Shown: positions 1,293 to 57,700 of the stretch, piece by piece
Layout: each line of letters begins with the position of its first letter
Numbering within the stretch: the first letter of the stretch is position 1
Assembly (NCBI GenBank): GCA_964016885.1
Contig: OZ024743.1
Span: 18,352,001-18,416,000, forward strand
Length of the DNA stretch: 64,000 bases
DNA from: Eledone cirrhosa
Taxonomy: Eukaryota
Direction: 5' to 3'
Position numbers and translations under genes: made by a program
Notes under the pieces: generated by a model
Database searches by the model: none
What the model was told of the DNA's origin: nothing
Seen by the model: the letters and a program-made list of their open reading frames with translations, nothing else

Positions 1293-2310
1293 AATCAGCA
1301 AAACATTTACCACACAAACATATCAAAAACCCCCATTCACCATCCATTTCGCCGTTGAGTAGCTCCCACTTAATTTATAATTTATTACTTTTTCTTTTAT
1401 CTTTCATTTGTTACCACCTCAGATTCTCTACACGTATCTATGTTTGTTTCGAATATGGCTTTTCATGTTAGCACTCCATCCACCCAAGCATCCTTATACA
1501 GGCACTTACTCACCACCACCACTATTATCAACTATCGTATTCTGTACTTATATGATTTTATTTATGTTTATTTATTTATATTTTTTATTATTTTTACTTT
1601 ATTTTCTTACTTTTTTAATGTATCTTTATATTTCATCTTTTATTTCTCATTTTCTTTTTCTAATAGGATTATATCGATAAACGTTTCAAAAATAAATGGA
1701 ACATTGACAAATAAATGTTCACTGTATACTAAAGATATCTTATGTTTTAATAGATACACGTTATTTTTTCCAACATTCCTTTGTATATTACATTTAAGTT
1801 CTACTTTGTAGTAAATTAGATGGATATTATATTATATAATCATTAATGTTTGTCAATTGGCAGCACTTGTGTTTTTATATAGAGATAGATAGAAAAGATC
1901 ATAAGTAGGTAAGAATACAAAAATATATCGTTATGTATACATAGATGGAACTCCGATAAATTAGACGATGTATGAATGTCAATTCCCTTTCTGAAAAATA
2001 CGCGGAATGTGTGCATTTGACAGACACATGCAAATATGAAGTAATTCTCTAGAAAATTACATGTGACACATTGCGGGGACAAGACTGGCCCATTCAATTA
2101 CATATGCAGTCACCCTTCTATTCTTAAGCCAATATCACTGACTCGTTTTGGTTGGAGCCCCAGCTATAGTAAACACTTCCCAAAGACGTGTGCGTATATA
2201 TATACATACATATATTCTAATTTTCAATTTCTGCTTGACCGGCAGCCGCTCTGTATAATCGGTTCCTGATTATTTACTAGAATTCTATAAGAACAAAACA
2301 TCCATGATAT

Positions 2311-2396
2311 CAGCAGACAGGAGGAGTAGTTGGCTTTGATAAGCATCAATAAATGCGAAACAAGGCCTTGTCAGCTTTATCTCCCCCTGTTTGCTG
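2311..2396 (+). ncRNA. Type I hammerhead ribozyme, U3-A8 variant core
   Basis: Stem I GGCU/AGCU extended by CAGCAGACAGGAGGAG/CUCCCCCUGUUUGCUG; core UUGAUAA 2336-2342; stem II GCAU/AUGC; GAAA 2357-2360; palindromic stem III CAAGGCCUUG; UC 2371-2372. Confidence 0.82.
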
Positions 2397-2630
2397 AAAT
2401 TAAAGTAAGTGAGTCTGTCACTACTCTAAAACAATAGCATAAGGTCTTCGAAATGCTTTTAATTAAGCATACAGTGTATTGCAAAATACACTATATATAC
2501 ATTCATATATATATAGCTATTTCAGAGCACCAATTCTAATTTTCAATTTCTGCTTGACCGGCGAGCCGCTCTGTATAATCAGTTCCTGATTATTTACTAG
2601 AATTCTATAAGAAGCAAACATCCATGATTT

Positions 2631-2716
2631 CACCAGACAGGAGGAGTAGTTGGCTTTGATAAGCATAAAAAAATGCGAAACAAGGCCTTGTCAGCTTTAT
2701 CTCCTCTTGTTTGTTG
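2631..2716 (+). ncRNA. Type I hammerhead ribozyme, U3-A8 variant core (second copy)
   Basis: Same fold; core UUGAUAA 2656-2662; loop II differs (AAAAAA vs CAAUAA) while the core, stem II and stem III are unchanged; UC 2691-2692. Confidence 0.82.
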
Positions 2717-2896
2717 AAATTAAAGTAAGTGAGTATGTCACTACTCTAAAACAATAGCATAAGGTCTTCGAAATGCTTTTAATTAAGCATACAGTGTATT
2801 GCAAAATACACTATATATACATTCATATATATATAGCTATTTCAGAGCACCAATTCTAATATATATATACATACATATATGCATATATATATATAT

Positions 2897-13897: not shown

Positions 13898-13898
13898 A

Positions 13899-13930
<32 letters not shown>

Positions 13931-13933
<3 letters not shown>

Positions 13934-14690
13934 TTTCTGTATTGGCCACAAGGGCTGAAATCAAGAAAAACATTACAGACGGCACAGGATGGTACAGGAC
14001 GGCACGATGTGGGTTCTGTGCGCGTAAAGATTTGTATTATATAAGAAACGAAAAAGAAAAAAAGGACATAGAAACATATATATATATAAACAATAAAAAT
14101 GAAAATTCAAACAATGAAAAATTCCCCAGTAGGGGGGAATTCTCCGAGGGTTACTCGTGGAGAAAACCACACAAAAGACGACGGCCTCCCTGACCACCAG
14201 GGCATGCGCCTCCCTCAATTATTTCACATTCCTGAAACTACAAGCGTATATTCAGAGCGGTTCCGTTCACTCGGACCATTCTCGCTGCATTCACCCACCT
14301 TTCAACAAACTTGCTAGAAGACACCACTTGCCACTCCACCCTGATTTTCCTATTCAAGTGAAACTTGAAAAAGTTAATCAGCGATTCGCCGAAGGGGAAA
14401 GTGTCTGTCTTTAACCCTTTTAACCTTGTCCACCAAACAATCTCTTTCACCATGGCCACCATGCAGATGAAAACCGCCTGTCCCTCCTCCTCGAAGGAAG
14501 AGGGCGAGACCATCTGCACAATGGGCTCAGTCGATAACCAGATCGGTCCTACACGCGACAGCAACTGTTCGACATAGCTCTACGAGTCAGCAATGCTCGC
14601 GCACTGAACGAGTGCGTGCACGACGGTCTCGTCGTCTGCGCGCATCTCGGACAGACTCAGCTTACGACACTTCCGTGCCTGTAGAGCTTA
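13931..14690 (-). mobile_element. L1/Tx1-type LINE copy B, 3' fragment
   Basis: ORF2 C-terminus (NFFKFHLNRKIRVE..FVERWVN) plus 3' UTR ending at the TAA tract. Confidence 0.88.
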
Positions 14691-14728
14691 TATACTTTCA
14701 AACGTTCAATCAACTGACAGGAAGGTAT

Positions 14729-24000: not shown

Positions 24001-25735
24001 ATACAGGAAGCGATGTCTCACTGCACGAGGTGTAAATCGCCAGGCTTGGATGGTCTGTCCTACGAGCTTCATGCGTATATGCTAGACTTGTTCGGCGACC
24101 TCTTGGCAGATTTCTACTACAACTGGCAACAGAACGAAAGCATTCCCAGCTTTGTGAGCCGGGGCGCGGTGGCGTGCTGCAAAAAGACCCGAACAAGGAA
24201 GACGTTATAGACACCCTCAGGCCCATAACTCTGCTAAACTCAGAGTTCAAGATTTTGGCCAAGGTGTTAGCAAATAGATTGGCGCTTGTCGTCGGTGATC
24301 TGGTGGCAGGAGCGCAGACATGCGCCATTCCAGATAGATCCATCCACGACAACCTACATCCGATGTGATACATAATAGAGAGGGTGGTTAAGGAACCTGG
24401 CACGGGTAGGACCCTGATCAACTTGGATCAATCTAAAGCATTTAAAAGGGTCGACCATCGATACCTGACTACGCTCTGCGAGGCAGCCGGCTTGGGCCCG
24501 TTTCTAGCCTTCTCTTCTGCTTTTTGTGGAAGGGACGTGTTCTCATGGTCAGACGATCCATTTGCTGTCAACACCCATTGCGTGGAGGACTGGGCATTCC
24601 ATGGCTGATGATTCGCAAACATGCGCTGAGGCTGCGACATCTCTGGTGCTTCCTTGACGGTGAACAGACGTGATCGCCGTTCGCCAGGCACGTTTTCCCA
24701 TAGCTCGTCTCCTTGACGGAGCTGCAGTCCTGGGTCAGAAAAAGACCGAGGGATAGCGCTTGGAAACTGGAATGTCTCCAGACACTCACTGCCCTCTGCC
24801 AGCTGGGCACCAGTATCGGTGGAACATCCACCTCGGCGTTCTATAGAGGACTAATGGAGAGGAAGGGCGACGACGTTCTCGGAGAGATCCTAGGCGTCGA
24901 AGAAGATCAGCTGTTTGCTCTCTTCCGGAGAACTTTCATCCCAGGGCTTATGGATAACTTCCAAAAATCCCTGGCCTGGCAGTGCTACCAGGGAGCGCTG
25001 CCGGTTCGAGAGGAACTTTACAGGCACGGAAGTGCCGTCAGCCGAGCCTGTCCGAGATGCGCGCAGAGCGACGAAACCGTCGTGAACGCACTCGTTCAGT
25101 GCCCAAGCATTGCTGGCTTGTGGAGCTATGTCGAACAGTTGCTGTCGCGTGTAGGACTGATCCGTTTATCGGCTGAATCCATTGTGCAGATAGTCTCGCC
25201 GTCTTCCTTCGAGGAGGAAGAGTAGCCGGTTTTCATCTGCTTGGTGGCCATGGCGAAAGAGATTTAGTGGTGGACAAGTTTGAAAGGGTTGAAGACAGAC
25301 ACTTTCCTCTTCGGCGAATCACTGATTAACTTTTTCAAGTTTCACTTGAAGAGGAAAATCAGGGTGTAAAGGCAAGTGCTGCCTTCTGGCAAGTTTGTTG
25401 AAAGGTGGGTGAATGTAGCGAGAATGGTCCGAGTGAACGGGACCGTTCTGAATATACGTGTGTAGTTTGAGAGGTGGAAAAATTGAGAGAGAGCGCTTGC
25501 CCTGGTGGTCAGGGTGGCCGTGGTCTTTTGTGTGGTTTTCGCTACGAGTAACCCTCGGAGGTTTCTCCCCTATTGGGGAATTTTTCATTCTTTCAATTTT
25601 CATTTTTATTGTTTATATATATATATATGTGTGTTTCTATGTCTTTTTCTTTTTCTTTTTTTATATGAATGATAAAAATATTTACACGCACCGTCCTGTA
25701 CCGTCCTGTGCCGTCTGTGGCCAATAAAGAAATCA
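21017..25735 (+). mobile_element. L1/Tx1-type LINE copy C with internal deletions in EN and RT
   Basis: ORF1 knuckle CFNCGTKSHLRDFC; ORF2 from ATG 23140 (IGSVNVRSL, VVAISET) to about 25465 with CPRC..ALVQC; deletions near 23375 and 24505; TTA flanks. Confidence 0.9.
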
Positions 25736-25770
25736 TTATTATTGTTATTAGTAATATTATTATAATTATT

Positions 25771-28700
25771 GGTCTAAGCGGACGTCTTTTGCTCGCTCAC
25801 AGTAATTCGCTTTATTTGCCTGTTAAAATTATTTGCTGTTAAATATTTCTTGTTGTGTAAGGGATATAAGGCCTTAGACTTTGCCCCGTGAATGGGAAGC
25901 TATAATATTTGGGCCTTTTGGACCAAATATTTGAACTTTTTTTTACATGTTAAAAAATTTACGAAGAAAAAAAAACATGGCTGAGCCACGCCCCTAGCGA
26001 TATGTCGGCTGTCGTGCGACAACTACGTAGAAGTTGAGAGGAGCGCTACAGTGAAATTAACACACATTGATAACACAAACACCACCACAAACAAGGTAAA
26101 CAAAAACACCAATGATACCAATAAGAACACTAATTTTGAAAAGAATGACAGTAACATCCACAACGAAAATACAGATAACAAAATAAAAATAACAAATACA
26201 ACAACAATATCAACACCACTAACATGAAAACAAATAGCGACAACAACAACAGCAACAATACCAACTGCACCGAGAACAACGGTGGCAACAAAGACAACAA
26301 TGATAACAGCGACAGTGTTAACAACAACACCAACAAGAACAACGACAACAAAACCCCAACGAAAACAAGAAGAACACTTTCGCTGGAGATCCTTCTCCTG
26401 ATCAGGCCCGAGGATGTGAAGACAATCCCGGACCACATTCGCCTTCAGAATGGGACGGTCATTAACATTATGACCGAAGGCAAAAGGCCGCAGTGTTTTG
26501 TTTGTGGGAAAAAAACCCATTTGCGAAATTTCTTTCCTCAACTGCTGAAAGAGGCAAGGGGTCGAAACGCTCCACTGCTGCTGACGCCGGAGCGAGGACC
26601 ACAACCGACACCAGCACCGGCAAACCACCAACAACAACACCAATAGAAAGACCACCACCAACATTGACCACCCAGGGTGAAACGAGAAAAGCTGTCAAAA
26701 TCTCCCTCCCCCCCAAAAAAAATACACACACCAATAAAACCATAAACACACACACAGACACACTTACAGACACAGACCCCTCATCTACCAGTAGTGAAAA
26801 TGAGGGAAAACCCAAATCCCCCAAAATACAAAAAAGGAAACACAAAAAGAAAAAAAAACTCAACAAAGTACAAAAGCACCTACAATAAAAAATGCAGACA
26901 CCACCCACGCAAACATCTCTCCAATAACACCAACATCAACACCACCATCACCATCACCAGAATCACCCTAACGCAAACAACTGAAACAGACGCAAGAACA
27001 AATATACAAACAAACATCTGAAACCACAGACACCGCACTCACAACAAACACAGATACAACCGAAAAACACCACCAAAACCATCACCACCACAGTCACGCA
27101 AACAAATAAAATCACACCAACAAAACATACAAAACTTTGTGCTCGTCAGGAGAGCCAACAAGGAACTGATGGCCACCGTAGTACGAAGTGAAAATATACA
27201 AAAAGAGGGTGACATTTTTAAATCGAGCACATTTCGCGTGCAGGAAGATCTGGTTCTGGTGCGAATGTCGCTCGACATATTCAAAGAAATACGAGACAGC
27301 TTTCCTCGGGACGTGGGAACCCCGGACGTAAAACCCACTTCAAGACTTTTAAAGAGGTTCCCAAAAGAAACCCCACTAACTATGGAGGTCGAAAAATCCG
27401 ACCTTCACAAGAGCCCGGAAGGTAAGTAAACCTTTCTCTCTCTCTCTGTTTAACCTGCCAACATGGCCGTATTAAGAGTAGGATGTTTAAATGTTCGAGG
27501 CATGGGATCGTCCTGGAAGCAGGGTAACCTGCTCAACGACCTCAGGTCTATAGAAATGGATGTAATTGCAGTCAGCGCACTAGCCCCCATTTTCGAAGAC
27601 GATCAGATCTTTGCATCTGTTAGCCGGCCGGGTATGGGAGGCGGGGTGGTAGTGCTGTTTAGGAAAGGCCTGGATCTCGAGTTAAAGTCGATCTTCCGGG
27701 ACCCGGACGTAAGTTGGTGGTCCTGGACGTGAACAATAATGAAGGTGGTGCCTTTAGACTGGTGGCCGTCTATGCTCCTACTGGGGCAGGACGGCCGGAC
27801 TTCTTTAGACGCCTGGAGGCTTTCTGAGTACGTTCGCCCTTTACTGTTAGTAGGGGACTAGAACGGCATCTTAGACCCACGCTGGGACTGTGTGGGTGTA
27901 TCCGATAGGAGCGTGGGGTGCAAAAGCCTCAAGAACCTGATCAGCCAGTTCCAGCTGTCTGACAGGTACCGACTAGATTTCCCTAATGCGCCAGTGTGGA
28001 CCTGGGCTAACCGCGTAGTGTCATCTAGATCGTATATAGACAGGATATTCATTAGGAAAATAAACAGAAATAGTGTAAGCAGTCCACGTTTTGAAACGGT
28101 AGCCTATTCAGATCACAAGTTTGTGATCTGTATGGTCGACCTAGATAAGACGCGTAGGTTAGGACCTGGTTACTGGAAGCTAAACATGTCATTTCCGGCA
28201 CGTAAGGCTTACAGAGACCAGGTCAACAATTTAGTTAAGAAAAAGTTGACAGGGGGAATCGTCAACAATAGATGGTGGGGGGCTCTCAAAAGAGAGATTA
28301 GAGTAATGTCGATAGAGTTTAGCAAAGAAGTAGCATTAGACAAAAATAGAAAGGTGGGGGAGTTGGTAGATGAGTTAGACGAGGCTATTGGTAGTGGCAT
28401 TGCAACTGATGTGCTAGCGGCGAGAATGGCATTAGACTATTTCTTCAATGCGAAACACGAAGGTTGCATTGTCTGAGCTAAGGCGCGTGCTCTGAGAAAC
28501 GAGGGATCCAAAGCTGTTCGATGAGCCCGCGTGGCAGAGGCGCAGCGTGGTAATAAAACAACGATTCGGTCTTTGACGGACCGAGACGGGCACGAGCTGA
28601 GCGATTCCAAGAGGATGTGTGAGGCCTTTCGACAACATGTTGCTAGGTTGTTCGGGGGAAGTGGCGGGTCAGAGATGGTGGAGGACTTCAGTCCCTACCT

Positions 28701-31130
28701 GGATGGCTTGCCGCAACTCTCGATGGCTGACGCTGGGCGCTGAGAAAGGCCAACTACTTCAGCCGAGATTCAGGATGCCCTTGTCGGCTGCATGAGGCGC
28801 AAGTCACCCGGTTTGGATGGTCTGCCCTACGAGCTTTACGTAAATAGGACAGACTTCTTCTCCAATCTCATCGAAGGCCTCTACTGCAACCGGCAGCAAA
28901 ACGGGAGTATTCCCAGTTCTGTGAGCCGGGGCGTAGTGACGCTGACAAGGAAAGACGAGAACAAGAGGGACACATTAGACAATGTCAGGCCCATAACTCT
29001 GCTGAACACAGAGTTTAAGATTTTGGCCAGGGTGTTAGTGAAGAGGTTGGCGCTTGTCGTCGGGGATTTGGTTGGGGAGGCGCAAACTTGCGCAATCCCA
29101 AACAGGTCCATACACGACAACCTCCACCTAATGCGATACATCATAGAGAGGGTAGGGTGTAAACCTGGCTTCGGTGGGGCTCTGATCAATTTAGATCAAT
29201 AGAAAGCTTTCGATAGGGTCGATCATCAGTACCTGGAGGCTCTCCTCAAGGCGGCTGGCTTCGGCCCCGTCTTCGGAAGCTGGATCGCGGCAATGCACAG
29301 CGGCACCTGCTCAATGGTCAAAATGAATGGCCACCTCTCGGAACCGTTTCAGGTCTCCCGATCGGTCCGCCAAGGGTGCCCTCTCTCCTCCCTTCTCTAT
29401 GTATTGACTCTCGAGCCTTTACTGCGGAAGCTGGAGCAGTTGCAGGGCATCCCACTCGAACCGGGCGCGGAAAGGCTGTGTCGGCTTATGCGGACGACAT
29501 CACCGTGATGGTGTCGGACACCTCAGAAATCGAGGTAGTCGGCACCTTATTGAAGGAATATGAAAGTTTGATAGGATCAAAACTTAACACGGAAAAGTCG
29601 GTGGGCTTGCAGCTCGGAACCTGGAGAGGCAAGCCTAGGCCGTCCAACAGCGTCGTTAGGCGCTGGACGGATGGACCGGTAAAGTATCTAGGGGTTTGGT
29701 TCGGGCCAGACCTCCAGGTGGTTAAGAATTGGGACGATGTGACGAGCAGGGTAGTCAGTCTCATCCAGAAATGGGCTGGGATGAAGCTATCACTGAAAGG
29801 TCGGGCGGAGGTGGCGAACGCGTACATTGCGTACGTCATCTACTACCGTCTGACTGTCGTCCCTTTCCCCCGTTCGCGCCTCGCCATCTTGGAGCGGCTC
29901 CTCTCCAATTCTTGTGGAGGGGTCAGGTTCCGCTGGTGAGGCAGTCCATCTGCTGCCAGCACCCTCTACGTGGAGGGCTGGGCATGCCGTGACTAATGAT
30001 GCACAGACACGCGCTGAGGCTGCGGCATCTCCTGATATCCTGCCTAAACGGTGAACAGGTGTGTCGCCGTTTGTCAGACGGGCCTTTCCGCAGCTCGTTT
30101 CTTTGACTGAGTTGCAGTCCTGGGTCAAGAAGAGACCGAAACTGGGTGACTGGCATCTGGAATGTTGCCAGGCACTCACTGCCCTCTACCACGCGGGCAA
30201 TGCGGTCAGTGGAACTTCCACTCACGAGTTCTATAGAGGATTATTGGGGCACATGTGCGACGACGCACTTGGAGAGGCTCTGGGAGTCAACGGAGTCGAG
30301 CTAACCAGTCTGTACCGGAGGACCTTCGAGCCGGGGACGATGGATAATTTCCAAAAATCCCTCGCTTGGCAATGCTACCTGGGGGGCACTGCCGGTTCGA
30401 GATAAACTCTACAGGCACGGAAATGCTGTCAGACGACCTGCCCGAGATGCGCGCAGTACGACGAAACCGTTCTGCACGCACTCGTCCAGTGTCCGTGCAT
30501 TACTGACTTGTGGAGTTATGTTGAACAGCTGTTGTCGCGCGTAGAAAGGAACCGACTATCGCCCGAGTCCATAGTGAAGGTCGACCCGCCGCCTTCTTTT
30601 GGCCAGGAAGGGCAGACAATTTTCCCCTGTCTGGTAAATTAGCGAAAGAGGTTGTATGGTGGACGAGGTTGAAAGGACTGAAGACAGACACTTTTCTCTT
30701 CGGCCAATCCCTCATCAACTTGTTCAAGTTCCACTTGGAAAGGAAGGTGAGGGTGGAGAGAGAAGTGCTGCCCCCCCCCCCCCCCCCAGTACATTTGCTG
30801 AAAGGTGGGTGAATGTGGCGAGAATGGCCCGTGTGAGTGGGCTTACTCTAGTCATGCGGATGTAGGTAGGTAAATTTGAACAGGAGAGGGGTGCCCTTCC
30901 AGGGTGCTCTCGAAGCGTCGTGTCGTTCAGGACTGGTGGGGTACCTGAGCGAACCCTAGGTGGTCATCCCTCCTATTGGGGAATTTTATCTTGTTGTAAT
31001 TTTATTGTTACTTTATTGTTATTTTGTTATTGTTATTCATATTGTTTACTCGATTTTTCTGTAAAACCCCACTGCCCCAGACTTTTGTATTGTCCCCTAT
31101 ATCTCGGCCTTTGTGGCCAATAAATGAAAT
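25771..31130 (+). mobile_element. L1/Tx1-type LINE copy D (divergent subfamily; ORF1 partly deleted)
   Basis: Knuckle CFVCGKKTHLRN; ORF2 27463-30865 with GPGYWKLN, KSPGLDGLPYE, VRQGCPLS, AYADDIT; stops and frameshifts; AATAAA then TTA tract. Confidence 0.92.
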
Positions 31131-31158
31131 CATTATTATTATTGTTATTGTTATTATT

Positions 31159-34100
31159 TGCGACCTACTTAGTAAATCGTATCATCGTGAGCTCCGCAAA
31201 TATTTGTTATTTTCAGTTGTTTAAAATTGCCATTTATGGTCATTTGTTATTGTTAACTGTATATAAGTGCACATACATTGATTTCTGAAAAGGACACTCA
31301 AACATATTGGGGCATTGAGCCCAAAATTTAAACTTTTTATAATTATCAAACAAAAATCTTTTCTTTGAAAATCATGGATGACTCAGATTCACTCCTTCCT
31401 CACAATCCAACATCTCACACCGACACCACCATTGTAAACACTGCTACGTTTGCCAACACTGGAATTGTAAGCAGTAGCAATATTATAAATTTGTCTCAGG
31501 CAGATGTTCATTTCCCGCCATTAACAATGACTGCAGGGGTTAAAGCCGCCACCAACACTACCACCACCGCGACAACCCCCCCCCCCCCACCCACCCCACC
31601 ACCGCGACAACAGAAATAAATGAAAAAAATAAATTAACTCATGATATCGAAATGAATTCAACCAAATGAACTATTCCCCACCGAATACCACTGACGCCAC
31701 CACCACAACTGAAACTAAAATTAACAATAGCAAAAATAACGATAATAACAACAGCAACAATGAAATTAAGAAAACTACCCTGAGTTTTGCCAGAGTAGCA
31801 AACATGTGCGAAGCGATCCAGGTAACTCAGGAAGATTAGACGAAGCCAAAGGAATGGTAAAGAAAGATGGGTACAGGGTCAGCCCCCCCCCCCCTCACAA
31901 AAATAAAATGTAGCAACGTCGCCTATGCACCGTGTCTTATCGGACAATTAAAATAAATTGCGCCGAGGGGAACGGGCATCCGAGTCCCAAATCCAAAAAG
32001 CTTTGGGACATGTGTGGGCAAAAAAACCCACATCAGACGTGGGCAGAAGTATGGAACCGTGGACGTGTTCTTTGAAACACCACAGGAGGCCAGAGAACAC
32101 TCCATGGCCCCATTAAGAAGTGACAACTTCACACCCATCCCAAGCTATTGTGGCCAGAGACGTGTGAAGATCAGGGTGACCCACGTTCCACCGGCCATCG
32201 AAATTCCCTGGCAAATGGCTGCCGTCCTCGCCAGCATCGAGGCCAACACCAAAATAATAGAAATAGCAAAAGAAAAGCAGGCGAACTGGTCCGGATGGGA
32301 TGGAGCTCCTGATCCAAGCGGACCATAAAAGCATTGAGGAGATCCCAGAGGTAATAGACGTCACTGACGGCAGCCACCTCACCGTAATCGTCGAGGGCAG
32401 AAGACCTAGGTGTGTCCTTTGTGGTGAAGGAACCCACCTAAGGGCTTTCTGCCCACAGGCTAAATGGTTGAGGCTACCTCTCTTACTCACCCCAGTGACT
32501 CAACAATCAAGACCACCAGCAGCAGAAATAGCAGCAACAACAGAAGCAACTGTAACAGCAACAAACCCCAGCAACAATAGCAAAAGCAACACCACTACCA
32601 CCCAACGCTCCAGAACTAGCACCAGCGCCTACACAATCCACTACGCCACAACCAAAACCAACGCCTGCGGAGGATTTTTCACTCCCCGGCTTATCGCAAC
32701 TGGAGACAGATTGTGACAACGAGTATCAGGAAAAAAGAAAAAAAAGAAACCAAAAAAGAAAAAATTCTCTTCCTTCCCCCTCCAAAAACAAAATACAGAG
32801 GGAAACAAATAAATTATCGAACAAGAAAGTTAAGACAGGTATGCCACCATCCACACCAGCATCACCAACCCCATCACCACAAACACCAACAGTTCACCAT
32901 CATTAACCCCAACACCACCATCACCAACACCACAAACGTCACCAAAAAGCGTAACAGAAACAAACCCACAACAAACGCAAACAAAACAAAACAACCAAAA
33001 CGATACACACTACACAGCATTAAATTTGAACAACAACCAATTATTACACTACATGCAACACAACACCAGCATCACATAAAAGACTACACAACAACCCCAA
33101 AGTGAACACCACCTCCACACATACAAATCACTCGCATCACACAGAAAACGTGCACACACTAAAACAAAAATTCCCTAAAGACATCGGAGACTCCGACAAA
33201 CACTCTCCAGGAGGATTTATAAGGACATCCTTCTGGAGGAGGCCACAAGCAGTGAAAAGGATGGACAAACCCTCCTTCCTCTACGAGAAGTAAGGTAAGT
33301 GGTCTTTCCCATCTTTTTCACTCCATTTCAACATGACCTCACTCAGAATAGGCAGCATAAATGCGCGTGGCTTGGGGTCGTCATGGAAGCAGGGCCACCT
33401 GCTCAACGACCTCAGGTCACTAAACATAGATGTAGTGACCGTCAGCGGTCCAGAATCTCCGAAGCACGGGGCTTCGCACCGATCTTCGGCGGCTACGATG
33501 TGGAAGGAATCTCCTAGCCGTCCGGGATCGTGGGGAAGGAGTTGCTTTGCTTTTTCGGAGAGGTTTGGATTTCGCCATACGGGCCATCTTCCTGGACCCA
33601 GAAGGTAAGTTGGTGGTTCTGGACGTGACCAGCGGAGACGGGCAAGCTTTAAGGCTAGTAGCCGTCTATGCCCCGACAGGAGCAGGGCGGCCTGATTTCT
33701 TCCGGCGTCTGGATACCTTTCTTGGAACGTCCCGCTCTTTAGTGTTAGTGGCAACTGGAACGGGATCTTAGATGCACGCTGGGACTGTGTGTGATTAGCG
33801 GATAGGGAGGTGGGTGCAAGAGCCACACCAACCTGCTCAGGCGTTTTGAACTGTCTGACAGGTACCGATTGGATTTCCCGAATGTGCCAATGTGGACTTG
33901 GACAAATCACATAGGGTCATCCAGATCATATCTAGATAGAGTATTTTGTAGAGAAATAGATAGGTCTAGCATAGGCTGTCCACAATTCAAGATAGTCAGC
34001 TACACGGACCACAAATTCGTGATCTGTGTGTTTGACTTAGATAGGCTTCATAGACGAGGACCCGGCTACTGGAAGCTAAACGCGTCTTTACCAGCGCGCA

Positions 34101-36962
34101 AGACCTACAGAGACCGGATTAGCGAACTAGTTAAGCTGGCGTTGACGGGGGCCATCGTCAACAACAAGTGGTGGTTTGCTCTGAAAAGAGCAATTAGAAC
34201 AGAGTCCATTAGGTTTAGTAAGGCTTTAGCAATAGAGAAAAATAGACCGCGACCGACGAGAAAAATAGCATCGCGACCGACGTACTTGCGGCGAAATTGG
34301 CCCTTGACCAAGAACGAAAGCCGCGTTGTCAGAGCTAGAGTGCGTGCTCTGAGACACAAGAGGGAACGAAAGCCGACAGTGGGCCCGAGTGGTGGAGGCT
34401 CGTCGTGGCAAGAAAGCCACGATCCGGTCTTTGGTGGAGCACGACGGGCGCATGCTACTCGATCCCGGGCCAATGTGTGAAGCTTTTCAGCGACAATTCA
34501 CTCAGTTGTTCGGGGGCAGCGGCGGGCCGGATCGAGGGATGGACTTTAGTGTCTACCTCGACAGACTACCGCGGCTCTCGGCCACTGAGGCGGAGGGTTG
34601 CGAAAAGCCAATAAGAGCCGCTGAAGTACGGGAGGCAATGACTAGCTACACAAGCGGTTAATCGCCTGGTTTGGATGGTCTGCCCTATGAACTTTACTTA
34701 CAGATGCCAGACTTGTTCGGAGGCCTCTTGGCGGACGTCTACTGCAACCGGCAACAGAACGGGAGAATTCCCAGCTCTGTGAGCCGAGGAGCTGTGGCGC
34801 TGCTGAGAATGGATCCGAACAAGGGGGATAACATAGATAATTTTAGGCCCCTAACTCTGCTAAACACAGAGTTCAAGATTTTGGTCAAAGTGTAGCAAAG
34901 AGGTTGGCGCTTGTCGTTGGCGGTCTGGTGGGAGAAGCGCAGACATGCGCCATTCCCGACAGAACCATCCACGACAACCTCCACCTCATGCGATACATCG
35001 TAGAGAGGGTAACTAGGGAACCTGGCATGGGTGGGTCGTTGATCAATTTAGATCAGTCGAAAGCTTTCGATAGTGTCGACCATCGTTACCTAGCGGCAGT
35101 CCTGAGGGCGGCTGTCTTTGAGCTCGTCTTGAGAGCCTGGATCGCTGCCATGCACAGCGACATCTGCTCTGTGGTGAGAGTGAACGGTCACCATTCGGAA
35201 CCGTTCAACATCATGCGCTCGGTCCGCCAAGGATGTCCCATCTCGTCCCTCTTGTACGTATTGACTCTCGAGACTTTACTGCACAAACTGGAGACGTTGA
35301 GGGTGGTCCCGCGCGAACTAGGATGCGGAAGATCTGTGTCAGCATATGCGGACGATGTCACCGTAGTTGTGTCGAACGCCAATCACATCGAGGCGATCGG
35401 CACTACACTAAAATAATACGAAGAGGTGACAGGAGCAATGATCAACCAGGAAAAGTCAGTGGGCCTGCAGCTCAGCACCTGGAGAGACAGGTCCATGCCG
35501 TCCAACAGCGTCGTCGGTCGCTGGACAGACGCACCAGTTAAATTGCTCGGGGTCTGGTTCGGTCCGGATCTCCAGACGGACAGAAACTGGGACGAGGTGA
35601 CGAGCAGGGTGGCTTCTCTCACCCAGAAATGGGCCGAGAGGAAGCTATCCCTGAAAGGTCGAGCGGAGGTGGCTAACGCGTATATCGCGTCCATCATCTA
35701 CTACCGCCTGACCGTCGTACCTTGTCCTAAGCCCCGCTTCACTGCGCTGGAGCGTTTGCTCTTTCGCTTTTTGTGACAGGGACGCGCTCCGATGGTCAGG
35801 CGGTCCATCTGCTGTCAACACCCTCTACGTGGAGGGCTGGGAATGCCGTGGCTGATGATGCGCAGACACGCGCTCAGGCTATGACATCTTCACCTGTTCC
35901 TCGACGGTGATCAGGTGTGCTCTCCGTTTGCTAGACGCGTCTTTCCCCAGCTCGTCTCCTTGATGGAGCTGCAGTCCTGGGTCAAGCGAACACCGAGAGG
36001 GAGCGCTTCGAGACTGGAATGTCTTCAGGCGCTCACATCCCTCGACCAATCGTGCAATGTGATCTGTGGAAACTGCACCTTGGCGTTCTATAGATGATTA
36101 GTGGAGGGGAAGAGCGACAACGTACTTGGGGAAACTCTAGGCGTCGACGAAAATCAACTAGCCAATCTCTTCGGAAGAATTTCGGGCCGGTGCCTATGGA
36201 CAATTTCCAGAAATCCCTGGCCTGGCAGTGCTGCCGAGGAGCTTTGCCAGTTCGGGATAAACTCTACAGGCATGGAGATGCCGTCAGCCGGGCATGTCCG
36301 AGATGTGCGCAGGGCCACGTAACCGTCCTGCACGCACTCGTCCAGTGTCCAAGCATTGCAGACTTGTGGATTTATGTCGAACACCTGCTGTCGCGTGTGG
36401 GACGGATCAAGCTATCAGCTGAGTCCATCGTGAGGATTGCCCTGCCCTCTTCCTTTAGCCGGGAAGGGCAGGCAGTTTTTTATCTGTCTGGTGGCCATGG
36501 TGAAAGAGATAGCATGGTGGACAGGTTTGAAAGTGCTGAAGACGAGCACTTACCTCTTCGGTGATGCCCTGATTAACTTTTTCAAATTTCATTTGAAAAG
36601 GAAAGTCAGGGTAGAAAGGGAAGTGCACTCTTCCCAGCATTTTGTTGAAAGATGGGTGAGAGAGGCAAGAATGGCCCGAGTGAATGGGCCTACTCTGAGT
36701 ATGTGTCTGTAAATTAAAGATAGAACACTGGGAGAGGGCACTTGCCCTGGTGGTCAGAGTCACTGTGGCTTTTTAATGGGCTTTCTCCACGAATGTCCTA
36801 CGGAAGTCTCCCTCCTTTTGTGGAATGTTTTCATTGTCCTATTATTACATCCTCTGTTTCTTGTCTTTTTTACACGCAGAAATTCCCAATTGTACCGCCC
36901 TGTATTGTCCTGTACTGTCCTTAATGTCTACTTTATATAAACCCTTGTGGTTAATAAAAAAA
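31159..36962 (+). mobile_element. L1/Tx1-type LINE copy E, full length, decayed
   Basis: 5' UTR, ORF1 31374-33293 (CVLCGEGTHLRAFC), ORF2 33333-36712, AATAAA 36953-36958, TTA tracts on both sides. Confidence 0.93.
33333..36712 (+). pseudogene. ORF2 of copy E (APE-RT-zinc finger)
   Basis: SINARG, VYAP, SYLDR, YTDHK, GPGYWKLN, NLDQSKAFD, VRQGCPIS, AYADDVT, CPRC..HALVQC; frameshifted. Confidence 0.92.
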
Positions 36963-49660: not shown

Positions 49661-49700
<40 letters not shown>

Positions 49701-49710
49701 AACCAGTAAG

Positions 49711-49804
49711 ACCCCGACAGCTGAGCTCAAGCCGTTTCGACGGCTAATTCTGGACTAAATGAAAATTTATCCTGGTATTTAAATAGCCGATCTACTCAAG
49801 GGGT
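49711..49804 (-). ncRNA. PLE type I HHR, 3' copy (core UUGAGUA, probably damaged)
   Basis: Same fold as 53256-53349 with A8>U. Confidence 0.7.
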
Positions 49805-50916
49805 AATTCCATATATGGTCAAAGTGATTGTCAAAAATCAGTAGTAATTCTGTGGTTGCAAATTAGTAGGGGAGATGGTGGCTAAACCTGCCAGTAGGAG
49901 AAAGATGGGAGGGGGTGGAGTAGACCCAATCAAGCGTTGGTAGTGCCAGCTACAGCTGGGCATGAGGTCAAAGAAGATACAGGGGAGGGGGAGGGGGAGG
50001 AAGTCGGAACGGTAGGTAGAACAATGGGGGGTAGAAATATATAGGAAAGAAAAAAAATACTGAGAGTGAAGAAAAGCAAATAAGTGTAAAGAAAAAAGTA
50101 AAGTAAATTAAATTCTACGACCTAGGTCTCAGGCTATTGTTAGGCTAGAATAAAATAAAGAAAGAAAGAAAGAAGTAAAGAAATAAAGAAATAAAGAAAT
50201 AACGAAATAAGTAAAAGAACTAGGTGGGACGGGATAGGCAAGGACCCTTTTAAGAGGTATAAGTACGTAAATGATACGGTGACGGGTCAACAAAAGGGGC
50301 CAAAATACTAAAGAGACTACCACGAAATAAACAATAAAGGTTTCCATCCCGGGCCAGCAACGACCCAGTGCAGCAAAGTGAACTTGTACGAGATAATAAT
50401 TCTGAGTCCCGAGAAAAATATATACTAATGCTAACTCTAAAAGATCTAAAACAAGCTACATGAAAGTTCGTACGAAATAAAGGTAGAATACGGAGAAATA
50501 AATTCAGAATCCACCCCGCCCAGAAGAAAAGCGAAGCAAGAAATACTGAAACGAAAAAATAAGGCATAAGTGCCACTAAGAAATATAGAGGGCACAGAGA
50601 ATAGTGGGAGCCGGCGGAAAAAGGGGGCAAGTATCGGGGTCTAAGCCAACTGCTATAAAGGGCGGAGTCCGCCAAATCTATCATAGACTAGGGGAGGGGT
50701 GGTGGGGGTACTAAGGCTACATGGGGCCAAAGGGCAGCCTCGGGTGGGCGAGAAAAGACGCCGACAAAGGAGAAGAGCTGGGGTAGAAGGACTAAGGAGA
50801 GAGGGGGGAAGGAAATAAAGGAAGCGATAAAAGAATACAAAGAAGATCTTACGTCTTCCTTGGCAAGCAGGGGTTACCCATTGCAAAATCGGCAAGTGGG
50901 GTGTTATAGCCCTAGT

Positions 50917-53070
50917 CTACCCCCCCGGGTCATTATGGGGTTTGAGGGCGAGGTAAGTCCTACGCAATCTATGTTTACATGCAGTGACCAGTTCATCTTT
51001 CTTGTTTAGGAGTTGGTCCGTCGAAAACAGCATTTGTAAAGTTTCCTCCGAGCATAAATTGCACGGACGGCATCCTCCCGTGTAAGAATTAGTTCTGGAC
51101 AGTAATCTCCAAGTGAGATCATAGGTGATGTTGTTGTCCTTGAAGTCCCATATGTGGCCCGAAAGTGTAGTGGCGTGACGCCGGGCTGGGTTTCGGAAGG
51201 TATGTCTATGTTGGTATAGCCGGGTTTTGAAGTCACATGCGGTAAGTCCTATATAGGCTTTGTTGGAGGTATCCGTCCTCACGTTGTACTGGTAGATCAC
51301 ATTACGGTCTCTGCATCTATTGTCGAGTGGGCAAATAGATCTATCCGGGCAGTTACACCTCCTGGTCGGTTCTCCACTGCTATTTAGGTTATTTCTGCCA
51401 TCGGGGTTGAGTTTTTTGTTGTTAGAGGAGACGATGTTTTGTGCGAAGTTTGGTGTAGTGCTGTAAGAGAGTTTGATGGTATTTTTGTTAATTATGTTGT
51501 GGTAGCGGTGTTGTAATGGGAAGTGTTTTTCAATAAGTCTAAAGAATAGTTTCCCGATGGGAGTTGTCACCTCTGCGTTGTGGGGAGCATTGAACCATGT
51601 TACATTGCGTGAGCGGCGGTGTCTCCTGCTGGTTCCGCTAATGGGAGCTGGGCATTAGGATATTTCCTCCCGGAAACCACTCCGCTTGAGGGCCTGGTTG
51701 TGATAAGGCGCATGTTCATCGAATATCCGCTCATTAGCTGACAAACGGGATATGCGGAGGGAGATGTTTTTGACCAGGTTGATTGTGATGTTCCTAGGAT
51801 GGTTTGATCGGCTGTGGATGTAGTGCAGATTGTCATTAGGTTTCCTGGATGGGTAGTACAGGTCGTTTTCGAGGTCGAGGGTCACGTCCAGGAAGTTTAC
51901 TCGGGTCAGGGACGTTTGTAGGGTTATTTTAAATCCCCAGTCGCGGAAGAATCTGATTAATTGTTTCCGGACCCGATCTGTACTACTGGGGTTGTACCCT
52001 TTAAGGGTAAGGAGCCCATCATCACGGTACAATCCACCACCGAATGCAGGAAACATATCAGTGAGTTTGGCTATTAGGAATAATCCTATAAGATCTGTGA
52101 CCTCCGCCGAATCCGTGGCGCCCATGCTGACGTCGAAGGGTGAGTCGGGAGCTCTTTTTATCCATTTAGAGTCGTCAAAGAGTAAGACTGTCTTCCTGGC
52201 GTGGAGGATGATTTTTCTTTCCTGGTCGGTGATGGGCACAAGTGTTTCGGCGAAGTCCAAGGCGGCAGTAAGTAGCGGTAAGGTGATTGAAGCATAGTAG
52301 CTCTCTATGTCGAACTGTATGAATTTAGTTTCTCGTTTATCCTCCATATTGCTGAACCAGGAGATTACTTCCTGGGTGTTGATCCATAGGCTAAGTCGGG
52401 TGTGTTGCTTGACTTTTGGTATCATGCGGTCTAGGATTTTTTTGCTGATTCTCCCTATGTCGGACTTCGTTGGGTTAATAAGCTTGATAGAGGGTTTACG
52501 GTCAAAATCGGATTTATGGTCCTTCAGTGTGAAGTATGGTGTCCGTGGGTCTAGAGGTTCGGTGCTGTCGGCGACCCCGAGGCTGGAGGTGATTTGTTGT
52601 CCATCTCGATTTATGTCCTCGATGCAAGAGTGGTTGGCCTTTTTATAGGTGGAGTTTAGGCTGCTCCTGATCAGTGTGTGGTATCTGTCAGGGTTGACAA
52701 AGTATAGGTTCCCAGTTTTATCCGAATGCACCATGATGTCATTTGTGTTATCATACTCTGTTAAGTTGCTACGGAGTTTTTGTAGGAATCGGTTGTGTCT
52801 GGGTTTAAATTTAATGTTCTTGACCAGTTGGAAGAGGTCATTCTAGAAGGGTGCGAGCAAGGGGTTCAGGGGCGGAGATTTGTAGGTAATAAATCCGAAT
52901 CTCTCCTTGGTGCCGAAGTCTTGGTTGTCGCAATATCTGTCATAGAAAAAAGTTCTCCATCTAAGTCTTTTCGCAAATAGATCGATTTTTTGCGTGAGCA
53001 TCCGAAGGTAAAGTTTTTTCGGTGGGATTGGGATGTTCTTGGTAGAGAAGTCAATGTTGTGTTTTCGCAT
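50917..53070 (-). pseudogene. PLE polyprotein (RT + GIY-YIG), single 718-codon frame with two premature stops
   Basis: MRKHNIDFSTKNIPIP; SDKTGNLY; FIQFDIESYY; SMGATDSAEV; GLYRDDGL; NFLDV; CNCPDRSICPLDNRC; VIYQ..AYIGLT..FKTRLYQH. In-frame TAG at 52843-52845 and TAA at 51655-51657; no frameshift. Confidence 0.93.
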
Positions 53071-53255
53071 GGTGCGGGTGAAATGAATTGAGCTTAGCGG
53101 AAAAGTCTGGATACGGCGTGGTAGGGTCGGAAAGTGCTCTACTACGGGAGTAGGAGCTAGATAACGAAGGAAATGTGGTAAGGAACCAGGTGGACCATAA
53201 CGCACCAAAGTACTCAATACTTGAGGTAGTAGAGTGGGTAATAGGAACCAGTAAG

Positions 53256-53349
53256 ACCCCGACAGCTGAGCTCAAGCCGTTTCGACGGCTAATTCTGGAC
53301 TAAATGAAAATTTATCCTGGTATTTAAATAGCCGATCTTCTCAAGGGGT
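53256..53349 (-). ncRNA. PLE type I hammerhead ribozyme, U3-A8 variant core, intact
   Basis: ACCCC-UUGAGAA-GA(U)CGGCUA..37 nt..UAGCCGUC-GAAA-CGGCU-UGAGCUC-AGCUG-UC-GGGGU. Confidence 0.82.
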
Positions 53350-54209
53350 AATTCCATATATGGTCAAAGTGATTGTCAAAAATCAGTAGTAATTCTGTGG
53401 TTGCAAATTAGTCGGGGAGATGGTGGCTAAACCTGCCAGTAGGAGAAAGAGGGGAGGGGTGGAGTAGACCCAATCAAGCGTTGGTAGTGCCAGCTACAGC
53501 TGGGCATGAGGTCAAATAAGATACAGGGGAGGGGGAGGGGGAGGAAGTCGGAACGGTAGGTAGAACAATGGGGGTAGAAATATATAGGAAAGAAAAAAAA
53601 TACTGAGAGTGAAGAAAAGCAAATAAGTGTAAAGAAAAAAGTAAAGTAAATTAAATTCTACGACCTAGGTCTCAGGCTATTGTTAGGCTAGAATAAAATA
53701 AAGAAAGAAAGAAAGAAGTAAAGAAATAAAGAAATAAAGAAATAACGAAATAAGTAAAAGAACTAGGTGGGACGGGATAGGCAAGGACCCTTTTAAGAGG
53801 TATAAGTACGTAAATGATACGGTGACGGGTCAACAAAAGGGGCCAAAATACTAAAGAGACTACCACGAAATAAACAATAAAGGTTTCCATCCCGGGCCAG
53901 CAACGACCCAGTGCAGCAAAGTGAACTTGTACGAGATAATAATTCTGAGTCCCGAGAAAAATATATACTAATGCTAACTCTAAAAGATCTAAAACAAGCT
54001 ACCGTTCCGACTTCCTCCCCCTCCCCCTCCCCTGTATCTTCTTTGACCTCATGCCCAGCTGTAGCCGGCACTACCAACGCTTGATTGGGTCTACTCCACC
54101 CCCTCCCATCTTTCTCCTACTGGCAGGTTTAGCCACCATCTCCCCTACTAATTTGCAACCTCAGAATTACTACTGATTTTTGACAATCACTTTGACCATA
54201 TATGGAATT

Positions 54210-54303
54210 ACCCCTTGGGAAGATCGGCTATTTAAATACCAGGATAAATTTTCATTTAGTCCAGAATTAGCCGTCGAAACGGCTTGAGCTCAGCTGTCGG
54301 GGT
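54210..54303 (+). ncRNA. PLE type I HHR, inverted copy (core UUGGGAA, probably damaged)
   Basis: Same fold with A6>G. Confidence 0.7.
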
Positions 54304-54394
54304 CTTACTGGTTCCTATTACCCACTCTACTACCTCAAGTATTGAGTACTTTGGTGCGTTATGGTCCACCTGGTTCCTTACCACATTTCCTTCG

Positions 54395-54438
<44 letters not shown>

Positions 54439-54767
54439 GTATGTATGTAAATACACATTTAAGTGGTTTATATCTAATAATATTATTATTATCATTATCA
54501 AAATAATAATAATAATAATAATAATGCTTTCTTTATTAACCACAAGGGTTTACATAAAGTAGACATTAAGGACAGTACAGGACAATACAAGACAGTACAA
54601 ATGGGCATTTCTGCGTGTAAAAAAACAGAAGATGTAATAAAAATAACAATGAAAAATTCCCCAATATGCGGGAGACTTCCGAAGGTCTTGTGGAGAAAGC
54701 CCATTAAAAGGCTACAGTGACCCTGACCACCAGGGCAAGTGCCCTCTCCCAGTTTTCCACCTTTAAT

Positions 54768-57700
54768 TTACAGACACATACTCAGAGTAGGCCCATTCAC
54801 TCGGGCCATACTTGCTCCTCTCACCCATATTTCAACAAAATGCTGGGAAGAGAGCATTTCCCTCTTCACCCTGATTTTCCTTTTCAAATGAAATTTGAAA
54901 AAGTTAATCAGGGCATCGCCGAAGAGGTAAGTGCTCGTCTTCAGCATTTTCAAAGGTGTGCACCATACTATCTCTTTCGCCATAGCCACTAGACAGATAA
55001 AAAACTGCCTGCCCTTCCCGGCTAAAGGAAGAGGGTGAGGCAATCCTCACGATAGACTCAGCTGATAGCTGGATCCGTCCTACACGTGACAGCAGGTGTT
55101 CGACATAAACCCACAAGTCAGCAATGCTCGGACAATGGACGAGTGCGTGCAAGACGGTTTTGTCGCCCTGCGCGCATCTCGGACATGCCCGGCTGACGGC
55201 ACCTCCATGCCTATAGAGTTTATCCCGAACTGGCAAAGCTCCTCGGTAGCACTGCCAGGTCAGAGATTTCTGGAAGTTGTCCATAGGCCCCGGCCCGAAA
55301 GTCCTTCCGAAGAGATTGGCTAGTTGATTTTCGTTGACGCCTAGATTTTCTCCAAGTACGTCGTCGTTCTTCGCCTCCACTAATCCTCTATAGAACGCCA
55401 AGGTGGAGTTTCCACCGATCACATTGTGCGATTGGTCGAGGGCTGTGAGCACCTGAATACATTCCAGTCTCCAAGCGCTCCCTCTCGGTCTTCGCTTGAC
55501 CCAGGACTGCAGCTCCGTCAATGAGACGAGCTGGGGAAAGACGTGTCTAGCAAACGGCGACCACACCTGATTACCATCGAGGAAGAGGTGGAGATGTCGT
55601 AGCCTGAGCGCGTGTCTCCGCAACATCAGCCACGGCATGCCCAGCCCTCCACGTAGCGGGTGTTGACAGCAGATGGACAGCCTGACCATCGGAGCGCGTC
55701 CCTTCCATACAAAGCGAAAGAGCAAACGCTCAAGCGCAGTCAGGCGGGGCTTAGGACAAGGTACGACGGTCAGGCGGTAGCAGATGACACACGCGATATA
55801 CGCGTTAGCCACCTCCGCTCGACAATTCAGGGATAGCTTCCTCTCCGCCCATTTGTCGGTGAGAGAAGCCACCCTGCTCGTCCCTTCGTCCCAGTCTTTG
55901 ACCGTCAGGAGATCCCAACCCAACCAGATCCCTAGCAATTTAACGGGTCCGTCCGTCCAGCGCCTGACGACGCTGTTGGACGGCATGGACGTGCCTCTCC
56001 AGGTGCCGAGCCTCACCCCACTGACTTTTCATGGTTGATCATTGCTCCTGTCAACGATTCGTATTCTCTTAGTGTAGGGCCGATCGCCTCGATGTGTTTG
56101 GCGTTCGACACAACTACGGTGACATCGTCCACCATATGCGGACACGGATCTTCCGCATCCTAGTTCGCGCGGGACCCCCTTCAACGTCTGCAGTTTGTGC
56201 AGTAATGGCTCGAGAATCAATACGTAAAAGAGGGACGAGAGGGGACACCCTTGGCGGTCCAAGCGCATGATGTTGAACGGTTCCGAAAGTTGACCATTCA
56301 GTCTCACCACAGAGCAGATGTCGCTGTGCATGGCAGCGATCCAGCCTCTGAAGACGGGCCCAAAGCCAGCCGCCCTCAGGACTGCCGCTCGGTAACGATG
56401 TCGACCCTATCGAAAGCTTTCGACTGATCTAAATTTATCAAGGACCCACTCGTGCCAGGTTCCCTAGCTACCCTCTCTACGATGTATCGCATGAGGTGGA
56501 GGTTGTCGTGGATGGATCTGTCGAGAATGGCGCACGTCTGCGTCTCTCCCACGAGACCACCAACGACAAGCACCAACCTCTTTGCTAGCACCTTGTCCAA
56601 AATCGTGAACTCTGCGTTTAGCAGAGTTATGGGCCTAAAATTATCTATGTTACCCCCTTGTTCGGATCCTTTCTCAGCAGCGCCACAGATCCTCGTCTCA
56701 CAGAGCTGGGAATTCTCCCGTTCTGTTGCCAGTTGGAATAGACGTCAGCCAAGAGGCCCCCGAACAAGTCTGGCATATATACGTAAAGTTCATAGGTCAG
56801 ACCATCCAAACCAGCCGATTTATCCCTTGTGCAACCAGTCATTGCCTCCCGTACTTCAGCGGCTGTTATCGGCTTTTCGCAACACTCCGCCTGAGTGGCC
56901 GAGAGCCGCGGCAGTCCGTCGAGGTAGACACTAAAGTCCATCCCTCGATCCGGCCCGCCGCTGCACCCGAACAGCTGTGCGAAATGTCGCTGAAAAGCTT
57001 CACACCTTTGCCCGGGATCGAGTAGCATGCGCCCGTCGTGGTCCACCAAAGACCGGATCGTAGCTTTGTTGCCACGACGCGCCTCCGCCACTCGGGCCCA
57101 TTGAACGGCTTTCGTCCCCTCGTGTCTGAGAGCACGCACCCTAGTTCTGACAACGCAGCCTTCGTTCTTTGCATTGAAGAATTGGTCAAGGGCCAATTTC
57201 GCCGCAAGTACGTCGGTCGCGATGCCTTTGCTAAGCGACTCGTCTAATTTTCTCACTAATTCTCCCTGTGCTCTATTTTTCTCTATTGCTAAAGCCTTAC
57301 TAAACCTAATGAACACTATTCTAATTGCTCTTTTCAGAGCAAACCACCACTTGTTGTTGACGATGGCCCCCATCAACGCCCGCTTAACTAGTTCGCTAAT
57401 CCGGTCTCTGTAGGCTTTGCGCGCTGGTAAGGACGCGTTTAGCTTCAGTAGCCAGGTCCTCGTCTATGAAGCCTATCTAAGTCAAGCACACATATCACGA
57501 ATTTGTGGTCCGTGTAGCTGACTATCTTGAATTGAGGACAGCCTATGCTAGGCCTATCTATTTCCCTACAAAATACTCTATCTAGATATGATCTGGATGA
57601 CCCGATACGATTTGTCCAAGTCCACATTGGCACATTGAGGAAATCCAATCGGTACCTGGCAGACAGTTCAAAACGCCTGAGCAGGTTGGTGAGACACTTG

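Follow-up and report, generated by a model that had tools for sequence, protein, structure and literature searches.

Ends of truncated copies suggest in vivo hammerhead cleavage, a promoter inside the ribozyme and a possible circular template in a Penelope-like element of Eledone cirrhosa

A 64,000-nt stretch of Eledone cirrhosa DNA (assembly GCA_964016885.1, contig OZ024743.1, positions 18,352,001 to 18,416,000 of the forward strand), here called the window, contains a two-armed insertion of a Penelope-like element (PLE) whose pseudo-long terminal repeats (pseudo-LTRs) each carry a hammerhead ribozyme. Thousands of natural run-off records, left in the genome as ends of truncated copies of this family, suggest that the RNA is cleaved at the predicted base and that transcription starts inside the ribozyme. 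With moderate confidence we favour an explanation in which the ribozyme cuts in the germ line, holds the promoter in its stem II and makes the unit-length circle from which long copies would be made. The function of PLE hammerheads was called unclear in 2021 (PMC8557442), and in the one PLE system studied in vitro cleavage proved dispensable (PMC11167929); their role is now testable at exact bases, with stop-free copies, and if long copies need a circle, one mechanism would explain the origin of both pseudo-LTRs and retrozymes. Features are collected in Table 1; signed positions are counted from the predicted hammerhead cut (53261|53260), and E1 and E2 denote the two points, further downstream, at which inserted copies end.

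Most insertions of the family are stubs, because a 25-mer of the tail occurs 5840 times in the genome and the 26-mer just past E2 only 156 times. In a sample of stubs (60 of the first 69 listed tail sites), 38 of 60 E2 arms and 39 of 49 inverted arms end between -35 and -45. Genome-wide, both arms end just beyond -39 at 3697 loci, and 5644 arms, older subfamilies included, end at -41 with a non-templated next base. The A of TTAGTC, a motif that reads TCAGTC in several older copies, lies at -41 and the A of TCATTT at -45, and TATTTAAA begins at -70; the first two motifs resemble initiator elements and the last a TATA element. Among 100 listed -41 arms, 66 were set aside with a next base possibly derived from the opposite arm; the extra base is of the cap type in 20 of the 34 informative arms, with 6 and 8 for the other bases (p 0.002, hand count). 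In L1 and SVA an extra G at full-length 5' ends is taken as a copied cap (PMC4859970). It is likely, from these ends, that transcription starts within the stem II insert and that the RNA is capped at about -41. The same pile-up could arise if reverse transcriptase (RT) stalled at the stem II hairpin or at a bound protein, or if a nuclease cut there: the 3' foot of the distal hairpin predicted for stem II falls at -37 to -40, and the stops are scattered over -35 to -45. We hold this to be very unlikely, since a stall should recur on the second pass, where it does not, the hairpin is poorly conserved across subfamilies (79% of cells paired; one pair broken in 10/16), the TATA-like and initiator-like letters are mostly conserved across them, and the extra base is of the cap type.

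A second, smaller class of stops lies at the cut itself. The two arms meet close to the cut site at 181 loci, and among 50 of these that were listed both arms stop exactly at position 0 in 31 and at least one arm does in 45 (hand count), with filler bases between the arms in 19 of the 31 double stops. No symmetric stop at -1 to -3 or at +1 to +3 occurs among the 50, unless 12 blunt joints, which could equally be placed at -1, are counted. Stalling at stem I predicts ends at +4 or +5 and stalling at stem III ends at -1; a cut predicts position 0, where this sharp peak lies. Such stops make up a few percent of stubs (2/60 sampled), and three loci (L259, L275, L276) appear to record run-off at about 0 followed by a jump into sequence of the open reading frame (ORF). 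On this DNA record it is very likely that the ribozyme cleaves in vivo at the predicted base.

The earlier note on this DNA had placed three hammerheads with cores UUGAGUA, UUGAGAA and UUGGGAA in the insertion and had called the copy just upstream of the ORF the intact one; all three are there, and only that copy passes a type I descriptor. It had also proposed UUGAGAA (U3-A8) as the family consensus, and 2102 of 2141 flank-matched genome sites indeed read TTGAGAA (reversed control: 0 sites), so the other two cores are damage in the window copy. ADAR editing was considered as the origin of UUGGGAA and rejected, with no A>G excess in 131 segments (private changes: 31 A>G versus 128 C>T). At a further 2481 related sites position 7 is A, C or T; the first 100 listed comprise 94 U3-A8, 4 C3-A8 and 2 U3-G8 sites and no C3-G8 (hand count). 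Across subfamilies U3, A8 and the other core bases are fixed and position 7 is free to vary. Of the full 5-bp stem III with palindromic loop that the note described, the palindrome GAGCUC stands, and the stem has six pairs, including A15.1-U16.1 and closing UGAGCUC; the stem II insert is 48 nt. All the Hydra-clade cores in File S2 of PMC8557442, by contrast, start with C3 and have a short stem III; the canonical C3-G8 hammerhead describes the clade but does not enter into its phylogenetic definition. With paired positions 3 and 8, GAAA, a UH site and three stems all present, the motif reads as a type I hammerhead. Since no Rfam match at gathering thresholds occurs in the window and its fold gains no stability over shuffled sequences (z 0.55), the case for the motif is its core and its conservation in the family; stem I is 100% paired in 16 related copies. 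U3-A8 is a natural variant active in vitro (PMC3088659) and already known from Schistosoma PLEs (PMC4209133), and its presence in a PLE is therefore not new. Other hammerhead families in the fetched loci (L013/L045, L061/L254, L035) have U3-A8 cores TTGAAAA and TTGATAA in unrelated contexts, and several C3-G8 families also occur; these loci also include a 311-nt repeat that resembles part of the 320-nt retrozyme described below at about 77%.

Inserted copies end at two fixed places. Of 73 ribozyme 3' sites sampled on contig C1, 35 end at E1 (+18-20), 29 at E2 (+100-103), 8 continue and 1 is rearranged; back-to-back pairs combine one E1 with one E2 in 24 of 25 cases, and E1 and E2 are each followed by one copy of a common motif. 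The two arms are, as these ends indicate, primed at two fixed internal sites about 19 and about 101 nt beyond the cleavage site. Cleavage therefore does not set the DNA 3' end, and the earlier claim that it defines the unit-length RNA would hold only if the unit meant is a circle, first cut and then re-joined. The companion claim, that the element's 3' end lies less than 20 nt past the cleavage site, is right for the left end (49697-98) and wrong for the inverted arm, which ends about 100 nt past it (54397-98). At 56 polymorphic sites, compared in pairs that are not independent, differences number 9/1996 (0.5%) between tandem units, 21/1093 (1.9%) between inverted arms and 60443/191703 (31.5%) between insertions; both arms thus stem from one haplotype and, most simply, from one RNA. 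The 84-nt spacing is preserved exactly at 43 of the 44 joints that lie outside the mini-array. Near-full copies in the contig C1 sample (L085, L109, L110, L113, L105) end at unit positions 209-306, just within the ORF start, which is possibly another stop zone.

Long copies behave differently from stubs when they reach the ribozyme a second time. Our sample comprised 70 loci, which together include 77 of the first 100 ORF-start sites listed (most of the sites left out were found with a query extending upstream), 'long' being judged on 1-1.6 kb of ORF rather than on the whole unit: 15 loci are short mosaics, 7 long copies end before -35, and 39 insertions, with 48 sites between them, extend as far as -35. 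Only one of these 39 insertions (L290, at -40) stops at -35 to -45 on the second pass, compared with 39 of 45 arms that reach -35 on the first (p 2e-16). A structural stall should recur on the second pass. The template of long copies thus seems to have no 5' end at -41, and we lean, somewhat cautiously, toward a unit-length RNA circle closed at the cut site.

It might be held instead that the ribozyme is incidental and that long copies derive, with internal priming, from uncleaved multimeric or read-through transcripts of tandem loci. A mechanism of this kind has been proposed for an anole PLE (PMC11167929), tandem arrays of 2-4 full units are present, and stops at position 0 are as scarce as noted above. 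Capped linear multimers are disfavoured, however, because 2-4-unit arrays transcribed from -41 would bring 25-50% of second passes to the cap and 1/39 is seen (p 2e-4 at 25%), and the fixed U3, A8 and other core bases, beside a free position 7, speak against an incidental ribozyme; this account, which we judge quite unlikely, survives only with long templates started at host or other promoters far upstream. A stronger competitor, still rather unlikely, dispenses with the covalent circle: a short cDNA would transfer from the 5' to the 3' end of the same linear RNA, which would run from the cap (-41) to the downstream cut with a 41-nt terminal repeat, giving a pseudo-circle much like retroviral strong-stop transfer. 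Seamless joints and same-haplotype units would follow without any 5' cut. Template jumps after run-off are common (the 15 mosaics among 70 ORF-start loci), several mosaics jump from -30..-44 or 0 to +160..+545, a locus described below (L271) has a joint from about -42 to about -63 of a ribozyme, and one long copy does end at -40 (L290). Yet the transfer, unless a distinct population of short RNAs gives rise to the stubs, must fail in most first passes and work in 38 of the 39 second ones; L259, L275 and L276 also suggest 5'-cut RNAs reaching into the ORF, the precursor that a circle needs.

Under the circular-template explanation, Pol II would start at about -41 in stem II and leave a capped 5' end with only the 3' half of a ribozyme. 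The complete downstream ribozyme would cut at position 0, as the run-off ends suggest, and is predicted to pair through the loop III palindrome with the capped end and cut that end too; once ligated, the ends would form a 3.5-kb circle. Two RT events begin, by the DNA record, at E1 and E2, one from each side of a broken (TA)n tract, with one haplotype. On capped or cut linear RNA both would run off after 20-140 nt, yielding thousands of fold-back stubs; on the circle they would pass the joint and stop at scattered places, yielding a unit plus a pseudo-LTR of variable length. When the capped 5' piece and the 3' ribozyme are folded together, the minimum-energy structure is a double hammerhead joined via GAGCUC, and we propose this double hammerhead between capped end and downstream ribozyme tentatively. 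A wider proposal, equally speculative, is that the double hammerhead might remove the cap and free the ends for ligation, switching the RNA from messenger to circular template, that each RNA species (capped, cut, circular) might be recorded as a class of truncated insertions, and that retrozymes might arise directly from mis-jumps of the PLE enzyme such as that at L271.

Several points weigh against this explanation. All its proposed steps are read from DNA ends. The cap-type count was made by hand, mixes in subfamilies with a G templated at -42 and cannot count A, and a script count of the extra base on fetched loci is confounded by the opposite arm. Of the 31 loci where both arms stop at position 0, 12 have blunt CCCCGGGG joints, which a 2-nt microhomology at -1 would equally yield. 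Arms of the same haplotype are equally expected from any homogeneous source locus, and long copies were defined on part of the unit, as said above. Among 16 close copies, none of the 31 hammerhead pairs has both of its bases changed. With a stable stem III the downstream cut needs no double hammerhead, and the palindrome occupies the place expected of a downstream promoter element. In the anole Poseidon element PAc, ribozyme mutants left in vitro insertion unchanged, and none of the RNA reads ended at the cut site (PMC11167929), where the window family has genomic run-off. Finally, four-unit arrays as rolling-circle products are weakened by alternating ABAB private variants; the arrays probably grew by dimer duplication after insertion. 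For the ABAB arrays L031-L032 and L116-L117, such duplication stands beside a dimeric template and an assembly artefact as possible origins. Where the arms of one four-unit insertion meet (L117-L118, G000:C1:91489170-91492740), a 55-nt piece of the ORF is repeated in about 65 tandem copies.

The protein places the element among PLEs. The 718-codon frame with two stops that the earlier note had reported runs from the ATG at 53070 to the stop at 50917, the terminal stop counted, and is interrupted in frame by TAG (52843-45) and TAA (51655-57). Pfam and PDB sequence searches with the translation gave no match; its predicted model (pLDDT 90) has telomerase reverse transcriptase, TERT, as best PDB fold matches, and its RT has a YRDDG motif. 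By this model the element has a single ORF with a telomerase-like RT, as PLEs do. In the C-terminal part a VIY...YIG motif of a GIY-YIG endonuclease is present, read by motif without a profile match, and its YIG column is conserved in 38 of 40 homologues. RW[K/R] and DKT are almost invariant across 40 aligned proteins; the window protein reads RWR (for RWK) and DKT (for DKG), has a CxCX5C linker (CNCPDRSIC), CxxC (CNLC) and CxH (CKH), and shows, by eye, no CCHH motif. The Hydra clade, which includes Hydra-1_Obim, is defined by RWK, DKT for DKG, CxCX5C, CxxC, CxH and (TA)n targets (PMC8557442), and both arms of the window insertion, like all 64 E1 and E2 ends of the contig C1 sample, terminate in (TA)n. 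Motifs and targets thus assign the window element to the Hydra clade, as an endonuclease-containing (EN+) PLE; the EN+ class follows from the single RT-EN ORF, the partial tandem of pseudo-LTRs, the inverted truncated arm and the optional tail. Common to the published Hydra elements and this one are, besides the single RT-EN ORF, a type I hammerhead near the 3' end, an inverted 5'-truncated arm and an optional tail; the unit here is 3.5 kb against consensi mostly under 3 kb, the tail 82-85 nt against 30-40 (PMC8557442). Compared by eye, the window PLE is related to Hydra-1_Obim but of another family. The tail of Hydra-2_Amil, from coral, has a CTCTAC...GTATTGAG hairpin motif like that past E1 (by eye, post hoc; PMC8557442 File S7). 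Homologues of the protein at E below 1e-20 number 2049, and the best 120 of them share 38-54% identity with it; further Hydra-like RT and EN fragments, about 25-60% identical to it, lie often in neighbouring TA tracts (L086, L087, L094, L101, L104, L107, L111 and others).

Among other known systems, Schistosoma Cercyon shares the U3-A8 core in its PLE repeats (about 1300 matches there), the palindromic loop III and a dimer model; the same paper proposed in 2014, without in vivo evidence, a circle model for PLE tandem structure and described minimal PLE hammerheads that are weak in vitro (PMC4209133), whereas the window ribozyme has a full stem III and DNA footprints at the cut and at the start in stem II. 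PAc likewise has two internal RT starts downstream of the ribozyme that set the tail, with both strands of AT-rich DNA cut and extended; its start sites lie 30-40 nt apart in the ORF (PMC11167929), those of the window PLE 82-85 nt apart in the 5' untranslated region. For animal non-LTR retrozymes, derived from PLE repeats, ribozyme-cut and ligated circles have been proposed as RT templates (PMC7229834; bioRxiv 10.64898/2026.07.22.740005), and a ligated circle has been shown for retrozymes; the window PLE, unlike these, is autonomous. An internal promoter overlapping a self-cleaving ribozyme is known from L1Tc Pr77 (PMC3185411), and an Inr-type internal promoter in a pseudo-LTR from D. virilis Penelope (PMC2377424). 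The HDV-like ribozyme of L1Tc cuts at +1 (PMC3185411), whereas the likely start of the window PLE lies inside the hammerhead, splitting it between the RNA's two ends. In the literature searched, which did not extend to subscription papers or preprint supplements that may be relevant, neither a promoter within a PLE hammerhead nor genomic run-off at the cleavage site of one was described.

The window also holds two units of a 320-nt U3-A8 retrozyme, for which the earlier note had proposed this PLE as autonomous partner. The unit has 1941 candidate places, with the core TTGATAA in 47 of 48 motifs (overlapping loci included). Its insertions, tandem and two-armed, in (TA)n and with two ends, have a PLE-type footprint; the ends differ, however, at about +120-143 and +168 for the retrozyme against +19 and +101 for the PLE, and there is no sequence similarity between the two (best E 2.4) and no shared terminal sequence, leaving the partnership unproven. 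In Xenopus, 24 of 57 retrozyme families have pseudo-LTR homology (bioRxiv 10.64898/2026.07.22.740005), which the 320-nt retrozyme lacks. Against taking it as shown, other U3-A8 hammerhead families and many Hydra-like families coexist in the fetched DNA of the same genome. Retrozymes in genomes lacking the PLE, which the earlier note had taken as contrary evidence, were not met: both elements are present together in contigs of the two organisms examined. An autonomous element with the retrozyme tail does not occur in 1.18 Mb of fetched loci, no genome-wide search having been made. We are confident that some PLE mobilises the retrozyme, and doubtful that the window family does. A GTATTG hairpin lies about 62 nt before the distal end of the retrozyme, a spacing near that before E2 (by eye, post hoc).

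At a single locus (L271, G000:C2:356030057-356031876) seven full 299-nt tandem units, with 0-1 base differences, have an E2 end in (TA)n; the unit consists of the PLE ribozyme (whole, U3-A8, with stem II 20 nt shorter), both priming sites and the ORF start, and is a candidate newborn retrozyme cut out of the window PLE family. The TA tract of this locus also contains a diverged two-armed insertion of the 320-nt retrozyme. Repeated template jumping is seen on a smaller scale in a stub with two 226-nt repeats of -30..+197 (L272, G000:C3:139311049-139311300).

The PLE family is young and abundant, and the window copy slightly damaged. Candidate places for the 411-nt junction number 1066 across the 3.0-Gb genome, with 99% identity or above for the best 40, and stop-free copies, which the earlier note had suggested seeking, were found: ORFs of 717-722 aa occur in 16 of 20 best-hit stretches, and stop-free ORFs in 3 of 37 regions sampled in order along contig C1. 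Synonymous and nonsynonymous ORF variants number 9 and 3 when shared, 80 and 160 when private (p 0.005). Non-autonomous passenger families were considered as a source of the high contig depth over the tail and rejected, the fetched examples being truncated stubs of the PLE family and of older subfamilies. One older, very abundant subfamily (L121-L150) has the same tail and another stem II, and folds back about 40 nt before its cut site.

Table 1. Features of the PLE insertion and of the retrozyme in the window (window coordinates).
Feature	Position	Strand	Remarks
Whole two-armed insertion, Hydra-clade PLE between (TA)n tracts	49697..54398
Main arm	54002 to 49697	-	5'-truncated unit, then full unit
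One full unit, 3544 nt	49698..53241	-
5'-truncated upstream unit (pseudo-LTR)	53242..54002	-
Inverted arm	53999..54398	+	End at E2, 100-103 nt beyond cleavage site; 82-85 nt tail
Outer end E1	49697..49698	-	18-20 nt beyond cleavage site
RT + C-terminal GIY-YIG ORF, 717 aa	50917..53070	-	Two in-frame stops
Intact type I hammerhead, core UUGAGAA (U3-A8)	53256..53349	-	Predicted cut 53261|53260; run-off peak
Downstream hammerhead, core UUGAGUA	49711..49804	-	Position 8 mutated in window copy
Inverted-arm hammerhead, core UUGGGAA	54210..54303	+	Position 6 mutated in window copy
TATA-like box TATTTAAA, stem II insert	53323..53330	-	29 nt ahead of likely start; putative function
Initiator-like elements, stem II	53295..53307	-	Suggested by truncated-copy ends
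Likely transcription starts	A 53301 (-41), A 53305 (-45)	-	Suggested by truncated-copy ends
Palindrome GAGCTC, loop III	53268..53273	-	Dimer fold
Repeated motif	53209..53234	-	About 10-35 nt beyond priming site E1
Second motif copy	53133..53156	-	Beyond priming site E2
Two units of 320-nt U3-A8 retrozyme	2214..2860	+	Sequence unrelated to PLE; partnership unproven

Elsewhere in the window, a C3-G8 type I hammerhead match adjoins a TA tract at 251-313 (plus strand). Several copies of another non-LTR retroelement lie in both orientations at 54690-57100, 23978-36790 and 11380-14691, one with a 374-aa frame at 54904-56028 on the minus strand.

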